Sequence record: OR352956.1
Direction: 5' to 3' (one strand)
Length of the DNA stretch: 64,000 bases
Origin: Escherichia phage AV126
The first letter of the stretch is position 1. The number at the start of each line of letters is the position of its first letter. A model generated the notes under the pieces. That model saw only the letters and a program-made list of their open reading frames with translations. It did not search any database and had not been told where the DNA came from. A program made the translations under genes and the position numbers. This document shows, one piece after another, positions 2,681 to 12,341 of this stretch.

Positions 2681-5353
2681 ATGTTTCCAATTCCAATATT
2701 TACTATTATGACCAGCACTGGTGTCGTTCCTCTGCCAGCAGGTATTGTTAAAAAAGTAATCACTTTAGATTACCCAGATAATGCTGGTAATTCTAATAGC
2801 AGTTTAGCAATTTTGCTTAATGATGGCAGATTGTTTACTCAAGGCGCAAACCTTTTTGGTGAGATTGCAGATGGAACTCGTAGTGCACGATTCAATAATT
2901 TCCACTTAGCTTCTACTGTAGTAGCGGATGTGTTTACCGCAGATCGTTGTTTTGTTATTAAAACTAACAGTGGGGGATGGCAATATTCAGGATTGACAGC
3001 AGGGTTAGTAGGATCTATAGCAGCAGGTGGGACGGATGCATGTGTAACTACTTGGACCAGCTTTCCATCTGTAATAACAGGGACTATCTCTTTAGCCAAT
3101 CTTAAAGAGGTTAAGGGAGGATATAACAACACTCTCTGGTTAATGAATAGTGGTGTTCTTTATGGATCGGGTCAAAACACAGTAGGCAGTTTAGGTGCAA
3201 GTACTACTAACGAAGTTTCTACTCCTCGTCAGATAACAAGTGCAGCAGTTGCTTTTGATGCAGGTTACAACCAATGCTCTTATGTCAACAATGTGGGAAC
3301 CTTGCGTGTTTGTGGAGCCAGCAAAGGTTTAGCAGGTAACAATAACACAACAAAAGCTTTTGTAAATGCTACGATATCCACTACTGAAACAGTGTATGTC
3401 AAAGATTACATCAATACCGTTTCCCAGACAATAGTTGTAGGAGATACCTCCGGCGGCACGGGTACAGTAAACTACTTATATGTTAGGTCTAATACAGAAA
3501 CAACCTACACTAAACTGGATACCTTTGCAGCAGGTTTCTCAACATGGAAGTTTCCACCAAGCCGCCACTCTTTTTTCGTTGGGATCAATAATTCCTTGTG
3601 GGCTATTGGTAAGAACTACACTGCAAACTTAGGTTTGGGGTATGATTCTGCGAGCGGAGATCCACTTCAAGTGGGAAAACCAGTTAAACCTGAAGGAGTG
3701 GGTTCCTGGGATATAAACAAGCTCACAAGCGTTCATACGCTGAATATGGATGTTACTAACCAATTAGGTTATCAAGGAACCTTTTTCGTTTATAATGGAG
3801 ATATGTATTATTCCGGTATTTGGAAAGATGGGAAAGCCTCGTATCTGTTCAATAGTGGTCTAAACTATAATAAATTCACACCAATAGCAAGCTCCGTGAT
3901 TACGGGTGATATTCTGGCAACTGGCTTAACTACAGATTCTTTAGGAATTTGTATTGTAGGTGGAACTAAACAGTTGACACATTCTGTTAGCCCAGAAGGA
4001 GGTAAACTTTTCAATATTAAATACACTTCTTCTGCCCCTGCAAACATGACAATATCATCTACTGGTTTAATGACTTTCCATGCAGAAGGTGGTTTTGATG
4101 CAGGTATGACAGCCTTAAACGCTGAAGGAACAACTTTATCAGATACCTCTGGAGGATATGCTTCAACATTGAGTGTTTACACCCCTAGCTTATCTGCGAT
4201 GGATGTAGGAACAACACAAACAATGGTAGCAGAAATAACGCCAACAGGAGCAGCAAGCTTACCTGGTATGGTTGTTGAGTATACAACTACAGATCCTAAT
4301 GTTGCTACAGTAGATCCTACAACTGGTGTAATAACTGGTGTTGGTGATGGTGGTTGTAGAATTGGTTGCACAGCTACGTATCAAGGTGTTGTTACCGCTT
4401 CTGATAGTTCTTATTTAACGGTGAACGCTGTTGCGGGAAAGGAGTTAGCTCCATCTCCGAGTAGTAGTCTAACGGTTCTAAACGGATATTTCAACCACTC
4501 GGCAGATGGGGCAATTACGTTCCCAATTTTATCGGGTACTGTCACACCAGCTAACTTTGTAGTTAAGGTGGATGACGTTGTAATACCTTCAAATAAAGTA
4601 ATATTTAGAAATAAAGCTTTCTCTACAGTGGATAGTTATCCAGCAGGAGAATATAGACTGGCTATTGAATTTGCAAGTGCTTCAGTAGTGAATAGTGTTG
4701 ATGTGTCTATGGAAGCAAATCCAGATCTTTTAGAATTATGGGGCGGCAACAGAATTGGTTATTCTACAAGCCCAGCCTCACAATTCTTAAAAGGTTGTGC
4801 TAACTTAAGACGAATAACTTCTGATTGTTTTAGTAACACATCTTACACCGGAACATCTATAAGTGGTATCTTCTCTGGCTGTACAAGTTTGACAGCTATC
4901 CCTGAAGGATTATTCAGTGATGCTTTATTTCCTTCAATGACAACAATGTCAAGCACGTTTGAAGGTTGTACATCTTTAACATCTATTCCTTCAGATTTAT
5001 TTAAGAATCTATCAAAAGTTACAAGATATTCTTACACCTTTAAAGATTGCACCTCTCTTGCAGAAGTTCCAGCAGGAATGTTTGATAATATTCCAACGAA
5101 AGTGACCTCTTTAACAGCTACATTCCAAGGTTGTTTAGGACTTACAGATTTTAATAAGATCTTTAATGACAACCCAGGGTTAACTGTTTGTGGTAAACGT
5201 GGAGCATTATCTTCTTTCTTTAGTGGATGCACAAATCTTACAGGAACAGGAACAACATTAACAAATACATTAGGCGGAGTAGCTAATAGTTACCTATTCA
5301 GGTATTGCACAAAACTTTCGGATTATAACAACATTCCTTCCGGTTATAAATAA
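2681..5353 (+). CDS. tail fibre/spike protein with Ig-like (Big_2-like) domain and C-terminal BspA-type leucine-rich repeats
   Basis: 890 aa; Ig-like segment PTGAASLPGMVVEYTTTDPNVATVDPTTGVITGVGDGG; repeated FxGCTSLTxIP units near C-terminus. Confidence 0.7.
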   Translation: MFPIPIFTIMTSTGVVPLPAGIVKKVITLDYPDNAGNSNSSLAILLNDGRLFTQGANLFGEIADGTRSARFNNFHLASTVVADVFTADRCFVIKTNSGGWQYSGLTAGLVGSIAAGGTDACVTTWTSFPSVITGTISLANLKEVKGGYNNTLWLMNSGVLYGSGQNTVGSLGASTTNEVSTPRQITSAAVAFDAGYNQCSYVNNVGTLRVCGASKGLAGNNNTTKAFVNATISTTETVYVKDYINTVSQTIVVGDTSGGTGTVNYLYVRSNTETTYTKLDTFAAGFSTWKFPPSRHSFFVGINNSLWAIGKNYTANLGLGYDSASGDPLQVGKPVKPEGVGSWDINKLTSVHTLNMDVTNQLGYQGTFFVYNGDMYYSGIWKDGKASYLFNSGLNYNKFTPIASSVITGDILATGLTTDSLGICIVGGTKQLTHSVSPEGGKLFNIKYTSSAPANMTISSTGLMTFHAEGGFDAGMTALNAEGTTLSDTSGGYASTLSVYTPSLSAMDVGTTQTMVAEITPTGAASLPGMVVEYTTTDPNVATVDPTTGVITGVGDGGCRIGCTATYQGVVTASDSSYLTVNAVAGKELAPSPSSSLTVLNGYFNHSADGAITFPILSGTVTPANFVVKVDDVVIPSNKVIFRNKAFSTVDSYPAGEYRLAIEFASASVVNSVDVSMEANPDLLELWGGNRIGYSTSPASQFLKGCANLRRITSDCFSNTSYTGTSISGIFSGCTSLTAIPEGLFSDALFPSMTTMSSTFEGCTSLTSIPSDLFKNLSKVTRYSYTFKDCTSLAEVPAGMFDNIPTKVTSLTATFQGCLGLTDFNKIFNDNPGLTVCGKRGALSSFFSGCTNLTGTGTTLTNTLGGVANSYLFRYCTKLSDYNNIPSGYK

Positions 5354-6313: not shown

Positions 6314-6706
6314 TTACATTAATTTTGCACAGAAAGAGCGGAGTCTTTCCATATCATCTTGCTCTAACAGGTATTTACCTTTACCTATTCCAACTCCAAT
6401 TTCACCATTAGGAAAATGAACTATTTGCACTGGGAAACCTCCGAGTTTAATTGTGGCAGCTTTGCCTTCTTCGTCTATAACGTTTCGGATTGTATCTTGC
6501 AGTGAAATGAATTCTTTGTTTGTAACAGTGGTTTCAATTATTTCAGATGTTTCAACACGAGCAGTTAGCTTCTTGTTTCCACCTTGAATAACCAAAATTT
6601 GAAAATAAAAAGAGTTGTCAAGACCTACAACATTTTTCTCAACTAGTGTTAAACTGGTATAATTTCCATAAACAGTTTCAACAGCTATCTTAGAACGTTC
6701 AGTCAT
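6314..6706 (-). CDS. hypothetical protein
   Basis: 130-aa ORF packed in minus-strand operon. Confidence 0.45.
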   Translation of the reverse strand: MTERSKIAVETVYGNYTSLTLVEKNVVGLDNSFYFQILVIQGGNKKLTARVETSEIIETTVTNKEFISLQDTIRNVIDEEGKAATIKLGGFPVQIVHFPNGEIGVGIGKGKYLLEQDDMERLRSFCAKLM

Positions 6707-6751
6707 TGAATGCTATCCTATCATAAAATGTTTAATATTGTCAAGCTTTAA

Positions 6752-7348
6752 TTACCAAGGAATATCATCTTCTTCTTCCGATTTGGTATCTACTTGAGGC
6801 GGACGTGGAACATTAACCTCTTTAACAAAGCGAAGATATGGGAAACGCGTAGCGATTTTAATAACATGTTTGGCATCTTCTCTAACATCTTTGTGCAAGA
6901 AGCAGATCCCTGTTTCCAAAGTTGTTTCAAAATCTTTAGAGTAATAACAATCCTTTCCATCAAATGCAGCCTGGCAGATGGACAGATCAAACTCATTCAG
7001 AAAGGTTGTCATTACATTTGGGTCCATAATCATAAGGTTGCAAAGCTGACCATCACGTTCAAATTCAAAAACGTGTTTAAGACCAGTAACACCCTCGTAG
7101 TTATCCGAAGCCTCTTTGTTTCCTAGTTTACGAATATTAGTTCCCATCAAAGCAGATGCAATCAAGTCTTGTATTTGCTCTTCTGATCGATGTGCAGGAA
7201 GAGACGTGTAAAAATCCAGATCACGTCCAGCAATATCAAGAATACGCCAATCACGAACAGCACCGCCAGCCAAGACAGAATTAGGATCAGCGATCTTTAA
7301 TACGGTAAGAATTTCTTTGGCAATATTGATTTGTTTTGATTTAGTCAT
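6752..7348 (-). CDS. nucleotidyltransferase-fold protein with SSB-tail-like C-terminus
   Basis: 198 aa; GGAVRD...LDIAGRDLDF resembles Pol-beta superfamily GS/DxD head; C-terminus EEEDDIPW. Confidence 0.5.
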   Translation of the reverse strand: MTKSKQINIAKEILTVLKIADPNSVLAGGAVRDWRILDIAGRDLDFYTSLPAHRSEEQIQDLIASALMGTNIRKLGNKEASDNYEGVTGLKHVFEFERDGQLCNLMIMDPNVMTTFLNEFDLSICQAAFDGKDCYYSKDFETTLETGICFLHKDVREDAKHVIKIATRFPYLRFVKEVNVPRPPQVDTKSEEEDDIPW

Positions 7349-7977: not shown

Positions 7978-10900
7978 TCAATGACAGGATGCCCAGGAAT
8001 TACCCACGTCATATCCGGCAGTAAGCTGAACATTAAGATTGTAAAATTCTCCAGCCTTAGTAACAGCTAAAGCAGCAAGTTCACCTGCCCGACTATAGGC
8101 TGTAAACCATCCACCTTTGGGAGATTCATGAATGTTAGCCCAAATTTGCCCTGTCTCTTTTTCCTTATTATGCTTCCATTCTTCAACTTTAGCAAGGCAT
8201 TCTTTATCAATTTTCTTTTGTTCTTCAGGATCGTCTACTTTCTTCCAACCTAATGATTCAGGTGAAAACCATTTAAATTCTACAAGGCTACGAGAAACTT
8301 CAAGCTGGGCTTCATCGTGATATGCAATCATTTGTTGCACGAAGTCTTTATTCTTCCAGTCATCTTTAAAGAAGTCAACACTTAGCCCTTCTTCTTCGAT
8401 CATGTCGTCATAAATAACCATTGCACGTTTAGCACAGATAACCCCACCACTTTGGAACAGAGAGTTAAGAATCGCGTGAGCAGAACGAGTAGGAACCTTA
8501 CGACCGTCAATACCCAAAACATACTGTTTACCAGTCTTAACCCAGAAATCGTTTAAACGTTCTTTAAGACGCGCCAGTGGGAATGCAGCTTCCCAGAAAG
8601 CATCGAACACCAGTTGCCCTGTGTATTTATCGCTACCAATTGTTTTAGCAACCTTGTCTGCTTGAGCGCCGTACGTGCAGTTACCTGTCAACGTGATAAA
8701 ACCATTCTGACGCATAACAAAAGATTCATTCTTGGTTGAGATACAGAATACATCTGTTACTCGTGAAAAAGCTTTTGTCAACCTCTGTCCTGAAATAGTT
8801 TGTCCGTTATTGATTGCCAACGTTAACATGCCATCTTTTTGAACAGAACCATACGCAATATTACCTGTCATATTGATAGCCAAAGAAACAGCGTCGCTAA
8901 TCTTACCTTTCTTTTGACGGATAACAAGACTGCCGTTTGGACGCTTATGACCATCTGCCATCCAGAATGCCTCTAAGAATGCTTCCAACACAGCTTGACC
9001 TTGATTAGCAATTAATGTAGACCAGTCCACTTCGTGCTTATTTTGACCCACTTCAACGCCACATTTAGTCAAAAATTCCCTAAACTGACTCTTATTAGGA
9101 CGTAATGAATGCATCGTTCCAGATACATACTCGTCAAATGTGAAGATATCTCCCACAGCCTCACGTGCTTCTTCTAAGAATTTTTTCTCATCTTGATCTA
9201 CCGTGACTGTAATACCCATTACTTTATTTCTGGCTTTGCTAGACCACTTATAGTAGCCATCCGAAAGAAGCCAGCCTAAGAAACGACCTTCTTCCACTGT
9301 TAGAGTAGACACCACACCAGATCGCCCTGCTGCAATTATGTTTGACTCCGAGTTTAAATCCTCTGTAGATCTACGCTCCACTTGCATATACTTAACATTG
9401 TTACCATCTGATCGCATAGTTTTTCTCTGTGCGTTAATCCACATATGATCGTTAGTAACTTCTACTTTGAACCACTTGTTACCGAGAGAGACAACTTCTG
9501 CATCGTTATAGTCCCACAGCTTAAGAATAGGGGTATATTCGTAAAGAGCGGTGTGAGTATTATAAGATAAAACTTCATCCCCTACAAAAAGATCTTTACG
9601 TTTCTTCCAACCCGTTCTTGTTAACACTTCCGTATTATCTACAGGTACACAACCGTATTTAACGCTCTTAGCAGGACCACGTTCAAACTTACGTCCAATA
9701 ATATCAGTAATATGTTTTGCCATCATAGTATGCACATCGTTTGGTTTTTCTAACAGAAGTGCATTACAGTAAGCATGATCAGGATTATCATATCTCCACG
9801 TATAATGCGACTCAATCTTCGCCTCTAATGAATCAAAGTCATAACCAATCTGGAAGTATTTAGGAACCTCTACACCAAACAGGTTACGCATCTGCCATCC
9901 AAACAAAGAGGTAACACGAGGAATATTGGCTACAGACCTATGCTTCATACGAGAGGTTGCTGCATCGCATGTAGCCGCTGGCGTAGGTATACGTCCATCT
10001 GCACGAACTGCTGCCAAGAAACCTTTGTTGTATTCTTGATCTTCTTCGTCTTCTTCCCAATCAGCACCGCCACCTAAAATAGAGTTCCTACGATGCTTAT
10101 ACGTTAAGTATTCTACAATCTGTGTAGCATAAGGAAACTTCTCACCCAAAGCTTGCAGGTTAGGACAAATTTCTTTTTCCTGACCTTTGGTAAAACATGG
10201 GTTAGTCAATACTTTAAGACCGCGACCTTTACCTTTTGCTATACGCTCTTGAATCTTCCTTTCCAAGGTTTCCGGTGTGCACTCCAGATGATCACAACGG
10301 TCCTGACAAAAATTAGAAGATAGAGTTTGCTCAACGTAAGCTCGAATACCTTTCTGAAGTTCTTCCTCACTCTTTTTAATCTTGGTGCCAGATTTAAGAG
10401 TCAAATCTTTATCTTTATATTCCGATGGTACCCAACCTAATCCTACAAGCCAGTTTTTAATATGGGTTGTATCGTTTAATGTTGCAGGGATGTGAGGATC
10501 ACATAAAGGCTCATCTGCTGCAACTGGCAGTTTCCACTCTTTCCCCAACATAACTAACCACCAATCTCCATCCCTCTCTTCCAAATGACCATCATGTTTC
10601 TTAGCAAAATTGATCATATGGTTAGTTGGCTCTAAGTTCTTTTTAATTTGCAACTTAGGTGGAATAAAAGCCTTAAGATAGCCTTTTGTTGCTGGTTTAG
10701 GTGGCAAAATAGGCTCAACGAGTAAACGAAGACGCTCCATTTCTGCATCCAAAAAAGCAAGGTTCTCTTCTGCTTGCTTCATGTTAAAAGCAAACCCACG
10801 GTGTTCCTGGCGCGTGATAATGTCTGCTACACGTTGTTCAAGTTCAAATGGACCTTCCCATTTATCATAATCCCCCCATTCTTCCATGAGGTAATTATAT

Positions 10901-11547
10901 ACACTTGTGTTGGCTTTGTTATCATAGATACAGTAATAAAGCATATCCGCAGCAAAAGTCTTAAATCGATCTTCTTCTGGAATCTCTTTACGGAAATCTA
11001 TTTTTACATCCCCACCTGCCTTTCGAGAAAGTGCTGCCAAACTATGTCCTGATTTGCCCTCAATCTTTCGATCTGGGTTTAACACTTTACTCAAAATCAA
11101 GGAGTCAATAAGTTTTACCTTATTTTTGCCCCACGTATTATATTTAACACTGTAATCTAATCCATAAAACAGTTTTGTAGCCAACCAGTCGTAGTTGATA
11201 CCGTTGTGAGCCACAGCCATTTCAACCAGATATTCAGGCTTGTCTTTAAAATAACCTTCATGATTAATAAAGTCTGGGAAATCTTTTAGTTGAAAATGCG
11301 TGTAATCTTGCGCCACATACTCTTTAAGAACATATGTGTATTTACCATCTGACTCTTCATAAGGACGCCCATCAAAGATGTATTTAGGGCCATCGTGGAA
11401 AGCTACTATTTCTCCTGTTTCATGGTTCTCTAAGACAATACAGTGCATTTGAAATGTGTCTTTGAGACGATAAGGACTAGCTAAATAATCAATAGTGTCA
11501 TTATTCAACAATCCGTTTGCTTCAATATCCCATGTAAACTTACTCAC
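7978..11547 (-). CDS. family A DNA polymerase (T7 gp5-like, 3'-5' exonuclease domain) interrupted by an intein
   Basis: 1189 aa; N-terminal DIEANGL and VAHNGINYD exo motifs like T7; motif B RGPAKSVKYG/CTYGAQ split by a 324-aa insertion. Confidence 0.9.
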   Translation of the reverse strand: MSKFTWDIEANGLLNNDTIDYLASPYRLKDTFQMHCIVLENHETGEIVAFHDGPKYIFDGRPYEESDGKYTYVLKEYVAQDYTHFQLKDFPDFINHEGYFKDKPEYLVEMAVAHNGINYDWLATKLFYGLDYSVKYNTWGKNKVKLIDSLILSKVLNPDRKIEGKSGHSLAALSRKAGGDVKIDFRKEIPEEDRFKTFAADMLYYCIYDNKANTSVYNYLMEEWGDYDKWEGPFELEQRVADIITRQEHRGFAFNMKQAEENLAFLDAEMERLRLLVEPILPPKPATKGYLKAFIPPKLQIKKNLEPTNHMINFAKKHDGHLEERDGDWWLVMLGKEWKLPVAADEPLCDPHIPATLNDTTHIKNWLVGLGWVPSEYKDKDLTLKSGTKIKKSEEELQKGIRAYVEQTLSSNFCQDRCDHLECTPETLERKIQERIAKGKGRGLKVLTNPCFTKGQEKEICPNLQALGEKFPYATQIVEYLTYKHRRNSILGGGADWEEDEEDQEYNKGFLAAVRADGRIPTPAATCDAATSRMKHRSVANIPRVTSLFGWQMRNLFGVEVPKYFQIGYDFDSLEAKIESHYTWRYDNPDHAYCNALLLEKPNDVHTMMAKHITDIIGRKFERGPAKSVKYGCVPVDNTEVLTRTGWKKRKDLFVGDEVLSYNTHTALYEYTPILKLWDYNDAEVVSLGNKWFKVEVTNDHMWINAQRKTMRSDGNNVKYMQVERRSTEDLNSESNIIAAGRSGVVSTLTVEEGRFLGWLLSDGYYKWSSKARNKVMGITVTVDQDEKKFLEEAREAVGDIFTFDEYVSGTMHSLRPNKSQFREFLTKCGVEVGQNKHEVDWSTLIANQGQAVLEAFLEAFWMADGHKRPNGSLVIRQKKGKISDAVSLAINMTGNIAYGSVQKDGMLTLAINNGQTISGQRLTKAFSRVTDVFCISTKNESFVMRQNGFITLTGNCTYGAQADKVAKTIGSDKYTGQLVFDAFWEAAFPLARLKERLNDFWVKTGKQYVLGIDGRKVPTRSAHAILNSLFQSGGVICAKRAMVIYDDMIEEEGLSVDFFKDDWKNKDFVQQMIAYHDEAQLEVSRSLVEFKWFSPESLGWKKVDDPEEQKKIDKECLAKVEEWKHNKEKETGQIWANIHESPKGGWFTAYSRAGELAALAVTKAGEFYNLNVQLTAGYDVGNSWASCH
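8680..9651 (-). mobile_element. intein with LAGLIDADG homing endonuclease, inserted in polymerase motif B
   Basis: Begins CVPVDNTEV (block A), TNDH (block B), LGWLLSDGY and LEAFWMADGH (LAGLIDADG pair), ends NGFITLTGN with +1 Cys. Confidence 0.8.
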
Positions 11548-12341
11548 TATTCCTCCTTTCTAATGTTCTCCAGAACCCACTGAAGTTCTTTTAAACTTAA
11601 ACTTCTTACTCCCGCAGTTTTACTAGCTTCAGTTTTAAGTAACGGGTAAGCCTCAATGATACGTGTTTTAAGATCAGAAGTCAAGGCTTTTAAAAAATAG
11701 GTAGATGCTTCAGATAAAGAATCTTCTTCTGTTAGCACTTTACCTGCGCTTGCTCCGGCTCTCCTAACGGCTATGTCGTAGTCTTTGCTGTTACCTAATA
11801 CGAACAGTCGATTCTCTCCTAAAACAACGGGAGAACGCTTCTGGCTGCGTTTAATCCATATCTGGAATACACAAGGAACATCCCAAGGTTCTCCATGAAG
11901 AATAAAAGATCCTTTGGGACACTCTTCTTCGTGAAGAAGATGCATATAAGGATTTAGTTTGTGTGCAAAAAAGATTTTTTGAAATGTGCGAGGCAAGATA
12001 AAACAAATACCACCTTCGTTATCCAACATTTCAGCACAATGGTTAAAGAACTTAATGGCAAGACTAGCATTTTTTCCAAATGGAGGATTACCGACAAAAG
12101 CAGTTACACTACCAACAGACTCAACAGATTGAGCTAAAAAATCTGCCTCAATACAATCTTCAAACTTAGGGTCAATATCAAAAGAAGTTATGTTTTTAAA
12201 ACAAGAAGAGAAAGCTCCTTCTCCCGCAGATGGTTCTACGTAGTTAGCTTCCTCTCCAAAAATTTCTTTGATCTTATCACATAAGAACCCCGCATAAGCG
12301 GGGTTAGTGTAATATTGATCAAGTGTGTTCAACTTGCTCAA
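11547..12341 (-). CDS. DNA N6-adenine methyltransferase (putative)
   Basis: 264 aa; EPSAGEGAF (SAM-binding) and VGNPPFGK (NPPF catalytic motif). Confidence 0.6.
   Translation of the reverse strand: MSKLNTLDQYYTNPAYAGFLCDKIKEIFGEEANYVEPSAGEGAFSSCFKNITSFDIDPKFEDCIEADFLAQSVESVGSVTAFVGNPPFGKNASLAIKFFNHCAEMLDNEGGICFILPRTFQKIFFAHKLNPYMHLLHEEECPKGSFILHGEPWDVPCVFQIWIKRSQKRSPVVLGENRLFVLGNSKDYDIAVRRAGASAGKVLTEEDSLSEASTYFLKALTSDLKTRIIEAYPLLKTEASKTAGVRSLSLKELQWVLENIRKEE

Follow-up and report, generated by a model that had tools for sequence, protein, structure and literature searches.

This study examined a family A DNA polymerase gene in a 64,000-nucleotide stretch of DNA from Escherichia phage AV126 (sequence record OR352956.1; hereafter the window, numbered from its first letter) and the 324-amino-acid insert that interrupts the gene product. 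The product matched the PHROG 17 DNA polymerase family (E=5e-103), and the gene shared 98.8% identity with the one annotated as "DNA polymerase I" in the Escherichia phages ukendt, nieznany, and nepoznato, which belong to Phapecoctavirus (Stephanstirmvirinae) and have E. coli K-12 MG1655 as their recorded host. Our analysis indicates that the insert is very probably a bifunctional intein, in which a HINT splicing domain carries a nested two-motif LAGLIDADG homing endonuclease, and that this element, seated in the O-helix of the polymerase, is splicing-competent and recently mobile. The parts of the gene are as follows.

7978..11547, minus strand: family A DNA polymerase precursor gene with the predicted intein, taken from the open reading frame (ORF) listing; 1189 amino acids, GTG start, stop codon at 7978-7980
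9652..11547, minus strand: N-extein, polymerase residues 1-632, with the 3'-5' exonuclease region, motif A (GYDFDSLE), and the first half of motif B (...RGPAKSVKYG)
8680..9651, minus strand: predicted intein of 324 amino acids, Cys1 to Gly323-Asn324, polymerase residues 633-956, 972 nt; exactly absent from phage phAPEC8
9649-9651, minus strand: Cys1 codon
9331..9651, minus strand: N-terminal splicing (HINT) lobe, intein residues 1-107, with block A (Cys1) and block B
9439-9456, minus strand: block B, T66-N-D-H69-M-W71, within the N-terminal HINT lobe
8797..9330, minus strand: predicted LAGLIDADG homing endonuclease domain, intein residues ~108-285
9256-9282, minus strand: LAGLIDADG motif 1, FLGWLLSDG, residues 124-132, with Asp131
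8950-8979, minus strand: LAGLIDADG motif 2, FLEAFWMADG, residues 225-234, with Asp233
8680..8796, minus strand: C-terminal splicing lobe, intein residues 286-324, with blocks F and G
8743-8745, minus strand: Cys303 codon, in block F (...TDVFC303ISTKNESFVMRQ), 21 residues before the terminal Asn
within 8680..8796, minus strand: block G, ITLT322-G323-N324
8680-8682, minus strand: terminal Asn codon
8677-8679, minus strand: +1 Cys codon, which belongs to the C-extein
7978..8679, minus strand: C-extein, polymerase residues 957-1189 and the stop codon, with the +1 Cys, TYGAQ (second half of motif B), and motif C (AYHDE)

The ORF reads ...RGPAKSVKYG/CVPVDNTEV...FITLTGN/CTYGAQADK..., where the slashes mark the predicted splice junctions. 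A first-pass annotation, made from the sequence alone, had described a 324-amino-acid insert at 8680-9651, and this description was correct to the base: the insert comprises 324 in-frame codons, and all of the motifs that had been quoted are present, namely CVPVDNTEV (residues 1-9), TNDH (66-69), LGWLLSDGY (125-133), LEAFWMADGH (226-235), and the terminal TGN. The same annotation had put the insert exactly between KSVKYG and TYGAQ; its boundaries stand, but the junction reads KSVKYG/C-TYGAQ, the Cys being part of the C-extein. An anomalous base composition of the insert was considered and rejected, the G+C content being 0.399 in the insert and 0.401 in the exteins.

The comparison with close relatives revealed an exact presence/absence polymorphism. 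The phAPEC8 polymerase comprises 865 amino acids, which is 1189 minus 324, and is without exactly these 324 residues; the exteins share 619 of 632 (N-extein) and 230 of 233 (C-extein) residues with it (97-98%). Because phAPEC8 lacks precisely this segment, the insert is an optional element with exact boundaries. Many equally close relatives, phAPEC8, ESCO13, and tuntematon among them, matched the query in two pieces that covered 72-73% of it. The junction in phAPEC8 reads KSVKYG-I-TYGAQ, and the replacement of this +1 Ile, found in the intein-free alleles, by Cys is the sole host-side difference at the junction. The phAPEC8-type empty site around the insertion point is GCTAAATCTGTTAAGTATGGT/ATTACCTATGGTGCACAAGCC.

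The first-pass annotation had assigned the insertion to motif B (the O-helix), had proposed an alignment of the extein with T7 gp5, and had named an ordinary domain shared with intein-free homologues as the finding that would contradict an intein. We aligned the spliced polymerase with T7 gp5 (E=3e-17). The alignment crossed the junction without a gap, aksvkygCtyga pairing with AKTFIYGFLYGA of T7 gp5 (residues 521-532 in 2ajq numbering, with K522...Y530 covered), and motif B was seamless after excision. This gapless alignment places the intein between the equivalents of Gly527 and Phe528, inside motif B and between Tyr526 and Tyr530, which bears out the assignment; the phAPEC8 polymerase, having no insert, does not fit an ordinary shared domain. 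A polymerase left unspliced, with 324 extra residues inside its O-helix, should be disabled.

The structure of the insert was modelled by using AlphaFold2 with eight homologues (predicted local distance difference test score, pLDDT, 82.9; predicted template modelling score, pTM, 0.84). In the model, an alpha/beta core is surrounded by N- and C-terminal lobes rich in beta structure, and the top Foldseek matches in the Protein Data Bank (PDB) were all intein endonucleases, namely TliVMA (2e-15), PI-SceI (1e-12), PhoVMA, PI-PfuI (1e-9), and PI-TkoII (1e-8), followed by the free-standing LAGLIDADG enzyme I-DmoI (1e-5); I-Tsp061I and I-WcaI were also matched. A profile of the splicing lobes matched solved inteins by sequence (Spl DnaX mini-intein, 2.7e-7; AceL NrdHF, 6.6e-6; then NrdJ-1, Mtu RecA, and gp41-1), and a phmmer search of the PDB matched the endonuclease domain of PI-PkoII (2cw7; E=0.001). 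A HINT fold was thus indicated by the model, by Foldseek, and by the splicing-lobe profile, and the duplicated alpha-beta-beta-alpha-beta-beta-alpha fold of LAGLIDADG enzymes by the I-DmoI and PI-PkoII matches. Both LAGLIDADG helices end in a catalytic Asp/Glu followed by Gly (FLGWLLSD131G and FLEAFWMAD233G). Of the class 1 signature, Cys1, the block B Thr-x-x-His, the terminal Asn, and the +1 Cys were present, and the intein is of class 1 by its sequence type.

To look for signs of selection, we set the window intein against its counterpart in L011, a metagenomic relative; this copy occupies the same site and is 71% identical. Synonymous sites were saturated (a synonymous proportion, pS, of ~0.8), so raw proportions of nonsynonymous (pN) and synonymous differences were used instead of a proper dN/dS. 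The raw values were pN ~0.20 and pS ~0.80 for the whole intein, 0.215 and 0.743 for the splicing lobes, and 0.196 and 0.841 for the endonuclease domain (raw ratio ~0.23). These values point to purifying selection on both domains, suggesting that both activities have been kept over this evolutionary distance.

An exhaustive phmmer search of 1.84 billion representatives revealed a large family: 1753 cluster representatives matched at E<=1e-3, and the stricter limits of 1e-10 and 1e-30 left 603 and 47, respectively; the window intein scored 338 bits against the hidden Markov model (HMM) of the family. Such figures, like the exact 324-residue difference from phAPEC8, lie well outside what chance would produce. 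Among the best 150 phmmer matches, 120 covered the whole intein; all 120 began with Cys, 113 ended in TGN, and the +1 residue was Cys in 54, Ser in 40, and Thr in 26. Most of these best 150 matches lay in motif B of family A polymerases, many at the same position (for example, RDxAKTFIYA/C...TGN/TLYGAG), and others were in different proteins. A search of IMG/VR with peptide patterns from the intein returned only one locus, a 48%-identical copy at 520-1293 of L010 (IMGVR_UViG_3300037423_000648), a 9-kb viral contig. Conservation was counted in an alignment of 121 family members of 25-71% identity, as listed below.

Cys1, block A: 121 of 121, and also 30 of 30 shorter members
Thr66, block B (B:7): 121 of 121
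His69, block B (B:10): 121 of 121
Trp71, block B (B:12): 119 of 121
Asp131, LAGLIDADG motif 1: Asp in 111 and Glu in 8 of 121
Asp233, LAGLIDADG motif 2: Asp in 73 and Glu in 46 of 121
Gly234, after the Asp of LAGLIDADG motif 2: 121 of 121
Cys303, block F (F:4): 121 of 121
Gln315, block F: 115 of 121
Thr322, block G (G:5): 115 of 121
Gly323, block G (G:6): 119 of 121
Asn324, block G (G:7): 120 of 121

The family-wide Cys1, block B Thr and His, and terminal Asn, together with the exact polymorphism and the HINT and LAGLIDADG folds, support the intein identity proposed in the first-pass annotation. Free-standing homologues of the whole intein, with HINT lobes and endonuclease, were also observed as separate metagenomic ORFs of 343-355 amino acids (P0004, P0005, P0124, and P0081). 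P0004, P0005, and P0124 are without Cys1 and without the terminal Gly-Asn (e.g., MGKGFNEGTEVLT...ITITSCL*), and P0081 starts with MSEVLT inside the N-terminal lobe and hence has no Cys1. All four may be intein-derived stand-alone homing endonucleases, and the loss of Cys1 and Gly-Asn is as expected if these residues serve splicing.

The distribution of the intein DNA was examined in 50,697 phage records. It was found in 11 records, which correspond to eight phages, and all copies were at least 99.7% identical. The carriers are three phapecoctaviruses, phiWec187 (classified as Justusliebigvirus), and four records labelled "Campylobacter phage". At the protein level, the window and phiWec187 share 484 of 625 residues in the N-extein and 201 of 233 in the C-extein, and 322 of 324 in the intein. 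A sliding comparison over 90-nt segments revealed that, outside a block around the intein, the window is ~97% identical to phAPEC8 and 58-85% identical to phiWec187. The limits of this block, and a second intein site that it covers, are as follows.

9652..9879 (~227-228 nt), minus strand: upstream flank, a putative co-conversion tract; 100% identical to phiWec187 and 61-82% identical to phAPEC8
8660..8679 (~20 nt), minus strand: downstream flank shared with phiWec187, beyond which each phage is typical of its genus
9799..9804, minus strand: empty second intein site, site a (...KIESHY/T-WRY...), 50 codons upstream, with a Thr codon (ACG, 9799-9801) where occupied sites have the +1 Cys

The near-identical block thus extends over ~1.2 kb in genes that are otherwise ~70% identical, and a base-by-base alignment of the exteins revealed sparser, foreign-looking differences for ~150 nt beyond the upstream flank, to ~10029. 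Phage phi92, a genus-mate of phiWec187, does not share the block, which implies that it was imported into both genera from a third lineage. We searched the phage collection for an empty site with the co-converted flank and found none; in all 126 records in which the query covers the empty site contiguously, the flank was at most 83% identical to that of the window, and the source lineage was not found in this collection. Judged by sequence, this is the pattern classically left by homing when flanking markers are co-converted, and the mosaic, shared with a phage of another genus, agrees with the earlier description of the intein as a selfish mobile element.

Site a is occupied in other phages by a paralogous intein of 245 amino acids (KIESHY/C...ITITGN/CWRY), which was found in 35 phage records, phi92, ESCO5, SD2, and PaulScherrer among them (loci L004 1273-4587, L005 1255-4587, L006, and L014). 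The DNA around site a in the window is strongly diverged and forms part of the imported block. Since the block covers site a, acquisition of the motif B intein with a long upstream tract would overwrite this site and remove any intein there. No record held both inteins (11 motif B carriers and 35 site-a carriers), and these findings suggest that two related inteins compete for the same gene.

These observations can be assembled into a proposed mechanism. A 1189-amino-acid precursor would be translated, and Cys1, with Thr66 and His69 of block B, would turn the Gly632-Cys1 peptide bond into a thioester. The N-extein would then move to the +1 Cys, cyclisation of Asn324 would free the intein, and an S-to-N shift would produce the 865-amino-acid polymerase, its motif B now uninterrupted (AKSVKYG-C-TYGAQ). 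Either the excised intein or the precursor would act as a site-specific endonuclease. In a mixed infection, it would cut the intein-less allele around ...AAGTATGGT/ATTACCTAT..., and repair off the intein-bearing copy would install the intein with its flanks, comprising the +1 Cys codon and roughly 230-380 nt upstream.

Several points weigh against this interpretation. We infer both splicing and DNA cleavage by the window intein. The His at G:6 and the His of block F, which usually help Asn cyclisation, are both missing, and the invariant Cys303 makes up, with Trp71 and Thr322, a class 3 signature, so that the order of the nucleophiles could differ from the class 1 scheme. The curated profiles scored below threshold: Pfam Hint (PF01079) reached E=0.09 and 12.8 bits against a cut-off of 29.7, and LAGLIDADG_3 (PF14528) reached E=0.0015 and 19.2 bits against a gathering score of 22.5, and scans with NCBIfam and PHROGs returned nothing relevant for the insert. 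The confidence of the AlphaFold2 model was low at residues 135-156, the presumed DNA-binding region of the endonuclease. Finally, near-identity of the copies demonstrates recent transfer, not that the endonuclease rather than ordinary recombination drove it. We judged the missing library calls to reflect a sensitivity problem, not evidence against an intein, because the fold and family searches were decisive.

The first-pass annotation had also suggested that a penultimate Gly in place of His might make the splicing chemistry atypical. The Gly is present, but it is no oddity of this copy: because it occurs in 119 of the 121 members, it is a character of the clade and not a lesion. Mycobacteriophage class 1 inteins often have Gly, Lys, or Ser instead of the penultimate His (PMC5050341). 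In E. coli, the intein in the recombination directionality factor (RDF) of phage Bethlehem, which naturally has a penultimate Gly, splices to completion, whereas the G316H substitution slows splicing and the precursor accumulates (PMC5050341). Since this intein is a full-length member of the family that splices with Gly, experiment provides a direct precedent for the chemistry that had been called atypical. Known exceptions that splice although a usual His is missing are the Bethlehem RDF, Mja, Ceu, and AceL NrdHF inteins (PMC5050341 and PMC7891396). Within this clade, the penultimate Gly and the missing block F His are normal features, and they are compatible with efficient splicing.

Among the alternatives, a class 3 or mixed splicing route, in which the N-extein passes to the +1 Cys with Cys1 dispensable or auxiliary, is unlikely. 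The clade would then be a Cys1-bearing relative or a progenitor-like form of class 3 inteins. The Trp-Cys-Thr (WCT) triplet of class 3 is present, with Trp71 at His69+2 (B:12), Cys303 at Asn324-21 (F:4), and Thr322 at Asn-2 (G:5); these spacings are the same in MP-Be DnaB (H65/W67/C320/N341) and Msm/Mle DnaB, and the three residues are conserved in 119, 121, and 115 of 121 members, respectively. A strongly conserved Thr at G:5 has been described as typical of class 3 only, and the histidines at F:13 and G:6 are absent here as they are in the class 3 intein AceL NrdHF (PMC7891396), which is the second-best solved match of the splicing-domain profile. In a survey of 37 WCT inteins, Tori et al. 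(2010) noted three that begin with Ser or Cys and did not settle how these three splice; in our search, the combination of Cys1 and WCT defines a large clade. Later literature calls the N-terminal nucleophile "not required" in class 3.

The evidence that stands against this route begins with Cys1 itself, which class 3 inteins lack by definition. It is invariant in the 121 full-length and 30 shorter members and is lost in the non-splicing free-standing homologues, which argues that it is needed. The Thr at B:7 is invariant here but dispensable in the class 3 prototype, and Cys, which hardly ever occupies the +1 position in class 3, is found there in 45% of members. That prototype, Bethlehem gp11, is a weak match of the family HMM (30 bits), whereas the class 1-assigned RDF intein scored 106 bits. 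The operational definition of class 3 combines the absence of Cys at the N-end with a Cys at C2:4 (PMC7891396); because it excludes an N-terminal Cys, the window intein is not class 3 in this sense. Nevertheless, with Cys1 and Cys303 both invariant, the order of the nucleophilic attacks may differ from that of class 1. We therefore offer only tentatively the possibility, doubtful as it is, that this clade of at least 1753 representatives, mostly phage-borne and largely unannotated, is a class 1 lineage ancestral to class 3 or can use alternative initiating nucleophiles (Cys1 or Cys F:4). In the ancestral variant, it could be the class 1 phage lineage, long postulated, that gave rise to class 3 through loss of the N-terminal nucleophile.

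It is also possible, although quite improbable, that the intein splices with an inactive endonuclease and that the shared block arose through ordinary homologous recombination between co-infecting phages. Inteins commonly cycle through endonuclease decay after fixation, and Stephanstirmvirinae genomes are mosaic in general. The paralogous site-a intein has lost half of its endonuclease domain (245 amino acids, one LAGLIDADG motif), and the low-confidence region of the model at residues 135-156 would also be consistent with decay. In the window intein, however, both LAGLIDADG motifs and their catalytic Asp are intact, and the endonuclease domain has a raw pN/pS of ~0.23 against the 71%-identical homologue. 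The recombinant block is centred on the intein, short, and asymmetric, as for break-initiated gene conversion. The intein is far from fixation (11 records, compared with 126 with an empty site), which is the stage where kept endonuclease activity is expected. The endonuclease of the related Bethlehem RDF intein is toxic unless inactivated, and hence active (PMC5050341).

A very unlikely proposal is that the intein acts as a conditional switch, in which oxidation or metal ions acting on three active-centre cysteines (Cys1, Cys303, and Cys+1) would reversibly block splicing and polymerase maturation and thereby tune replication to the state of the host. Three conserved cysteines do lie at or near the catalytic centre, and the insertion is in the catalytic O-helix, so the unspliced precursor should be inactive. 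Mycobacterial DnaB inteins are reported to differ in how they respond to stressors in the environment (PMC6195587), and Kelley et al. argue that variation of the penultimate residue tunes the splicing rate in phage replication proteins (PMC5050341). However, the majority of close relatives do without the intein and still replicate well (126 records with an empty site), and the distribution and mosaic pattern are those of a selfish element. The switch would be compatible with a splicing, homing intein and does not exclude it.

The idea that the insert is no intein is scarcely credible. It would then be a permanent fingers accessory domain, a pseudo-intein that has decayed within a dead gene, or a group I intron whose ORF happens to be in frame. 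In favour of this idea, the curated profile libraries do not call the insert and a penultimate His is lacking. Against it, polymerases of 97-98% identity lack precisely this insert, the splice-junction residues are all conserved, the modelled HINT and LAGLIDADG folds and the purifying selection speak for an intein, and the carrier phages were deposited with a named host, E. coli K-12 MG1655. The group I intron was rejected specifically, since an Rfam search of the whole window revealed no match to any family, group I introns included, and the reading frame runs through unbroken. L011 and L012, two metagenomic relatives, provided a positive control: in their polymerase genes, this search detected group I introns.

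The bifunctional intein accordingly adds a clean, new, and unannotated example to a known kind of element and does not constitute a new type of system. Phage replication proteins, polymerases included, are well-known hosts of inteins, and our literature searches found no paper on the motif B intein of Stephanstirmvirinae. The 11 carrier records name the feature "DNA polymerase I", "putative DNA polymerase/3'-5' exonuclease domain", or "hypothetical protein", or have no annotation; because the curated profiles are sub-threshold, neither NC_052661, which was inspected in full, nor the listed feature names of the other records mention an intein. The case is unsurprising to a specialist but clean and experimentally convenient. 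It provides an unusually clean natural record of intein movement between phage genera, with an asymmetric flank that overwrites a second intein site 50 codons away. It also provides an E. coli-hosted member of a large "TGN" clade with a penultimate Gly and WCT plus Cys1, the splicing chemistry of which is known only in part, and this member may be relevant to how class 3 inteins arose. Because the intein resides in the polymerase of an E. coli phage, the questions of class 3 origin and of alternative nucleophiles would be directly testable in E. coli. The endonuclease is a candidate rare-cutting LAGLIDADG enzyme whose defined target would be the stretch encoding motif B in family A polymerases, and the intein is a possible marker for recombination among therapeutic Stephanstirmvirinae phages. 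Two aspects deserve follow-up: one is the footprint of homing between genera, in which two sites compete, and the other is the Cys1, WCT, and Gly signature.

Several additional observations were made on the carriers and related genes. Five unannotated records labelled "Campylobacter phage" (MG065639, MG065645, MG065656, MG065689, and MG065650; host C. jejuni) contain polymerase genes of the Stephanstirmvirinae type. Four of them have the same intein at 99.7% identity and a polymerase gene that matches like that of phiWec187, and the label looks inconsistent with the sequence. In PaulScherrer (MZ501100; L014 2204-2938), the annotated "intein" mature peptide is one codon off the canonical Cys1...Asn (2201-2935), because Cys flanks both ends (Y/C VPMD...TGN/C WRY) and the boundary is ambiguous by alignment alone. 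The polymerase coding sequence of phage KIL1 (NC_030934; L007 1237-4344) is annotated as a two-piece join, yet it is one continuous ORF that contains a homologous intein of 331 amino acids (family HMM, 327 bits); the neighbouring primase/helicase coding sequence is also annotated as a join.

The polymerase genes of L011 and L012, which have the same motif B intein (71% and 55% identical, respectively), are also split by group I introns (RF00028; 82.7 and 55.5 bits). The L011 intron, at 1634-1965, lies between the His and the Asp-Glu of motif C. The interruptions in L012 are at 4581-4939 and ~6513-7260; one group I intron lies inside motif A (DFASL/E), and a further interruption, in motif C, comprises an HNH_3 gene and has no Rfam match. 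With interruptions in motifs A, B, and C, all three catalytic motifs of this polymerase lineage are targets of selfish elements. In the window itself, the family HMM was run against all six reading frames in translation and detected no second member of the family. The GTG start of the polymerase gene overlaps by one base (11547) the end of the upstream ORF for a DNA N6-adenine methyltransferase (11547-12341, minus strand); the same overlap is annotated in ukendt and phAPEC8, and it suggests translational coupling.

Among known systems, the Bethlehem RDF intein (gp51 in Kelley et al. 2016, PMC5050341; gp52 "phosphoesterase" in AY500153) belongs to the same family, matching its HMM end to end (106 bits, E=4e-34). 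It resembles the window intein in Cys1, TxxH, a nested LAGLIDADG endonuclease, a block F "VWC", and an LTGN end (HLTGN/S), but its host protein is an RDF/phosphoesterase in another phage group, it has Val at B:12 and a +1 Ser, and the pairwise identity is 22%. The site-a intein (phi92, ESCO5, PaulScherrer BASEL Bas60, and SD2) resides in the same Stephanstirmvirinae polymerase family and falls in the same clade (32% identity), with the C-terminus ITITGN/C and the WCT plus Cys1 signature; in contrast to the window intein, it lies just after motif A and has lost approximately half of the endonuclease domain, with one LAGLIDADG motif left. It is already annotated as "intein-containing DNA polymerase precursor" in MZ501100 (BASEL collection) and PQ821640. 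Full-length motif B homologues of 27-42% identity are found in the Pseudomonas phages vB_PsyM_KIL1-5, the Vibrio phages VnaP/VPMCC14, and many family A polymerases of metagenomic phages. All start with Cys and end in TGN, and many occupy the identical site (AKxxxY[AG]/[CST]xYGAG); the KIL1 intein lies four residues earlier (GKT/CNYASVYNAG), and some metagenomic copies lie one residue earlier (AKxxNF/SxxYGAG).

The solved intein endonucleases PI-SceI (1vde), TliVMA/PhoVMA (7qsu, 7qss, and 7qst), PI-PfuI (1dq3), and PI-TkoII (2cw7) have the same architecture of a HINT domain with a two-motif LAGLIDADG endonuclease. Against the window model, they matched with Foldseek E values of 2e-15 to 1e-8, TM scores of 0.57-0.67, and 9-16% identity, and their chains comprise 361-537 residues compared with 324 here. 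These enzymes have the canonical penultimate His and an Asp at F:4, and to our knowledge none has the WCT triplet. The class 3 inteins (MP-Be DnaB/Bethlehem gp11, Msm DnaB-1, and AceL NrdHF) share the spacing of Trp B:12, Cys F:4, and Thr G:5 and the association with phages. Unlike the window intein, they have no N-terminal Cys by definition, their +1 residue is almost always Ser or Thr, and they reside mostly in the ATPase P-loops of helicases and terminases, whereas the window intein resides in a polymerase.

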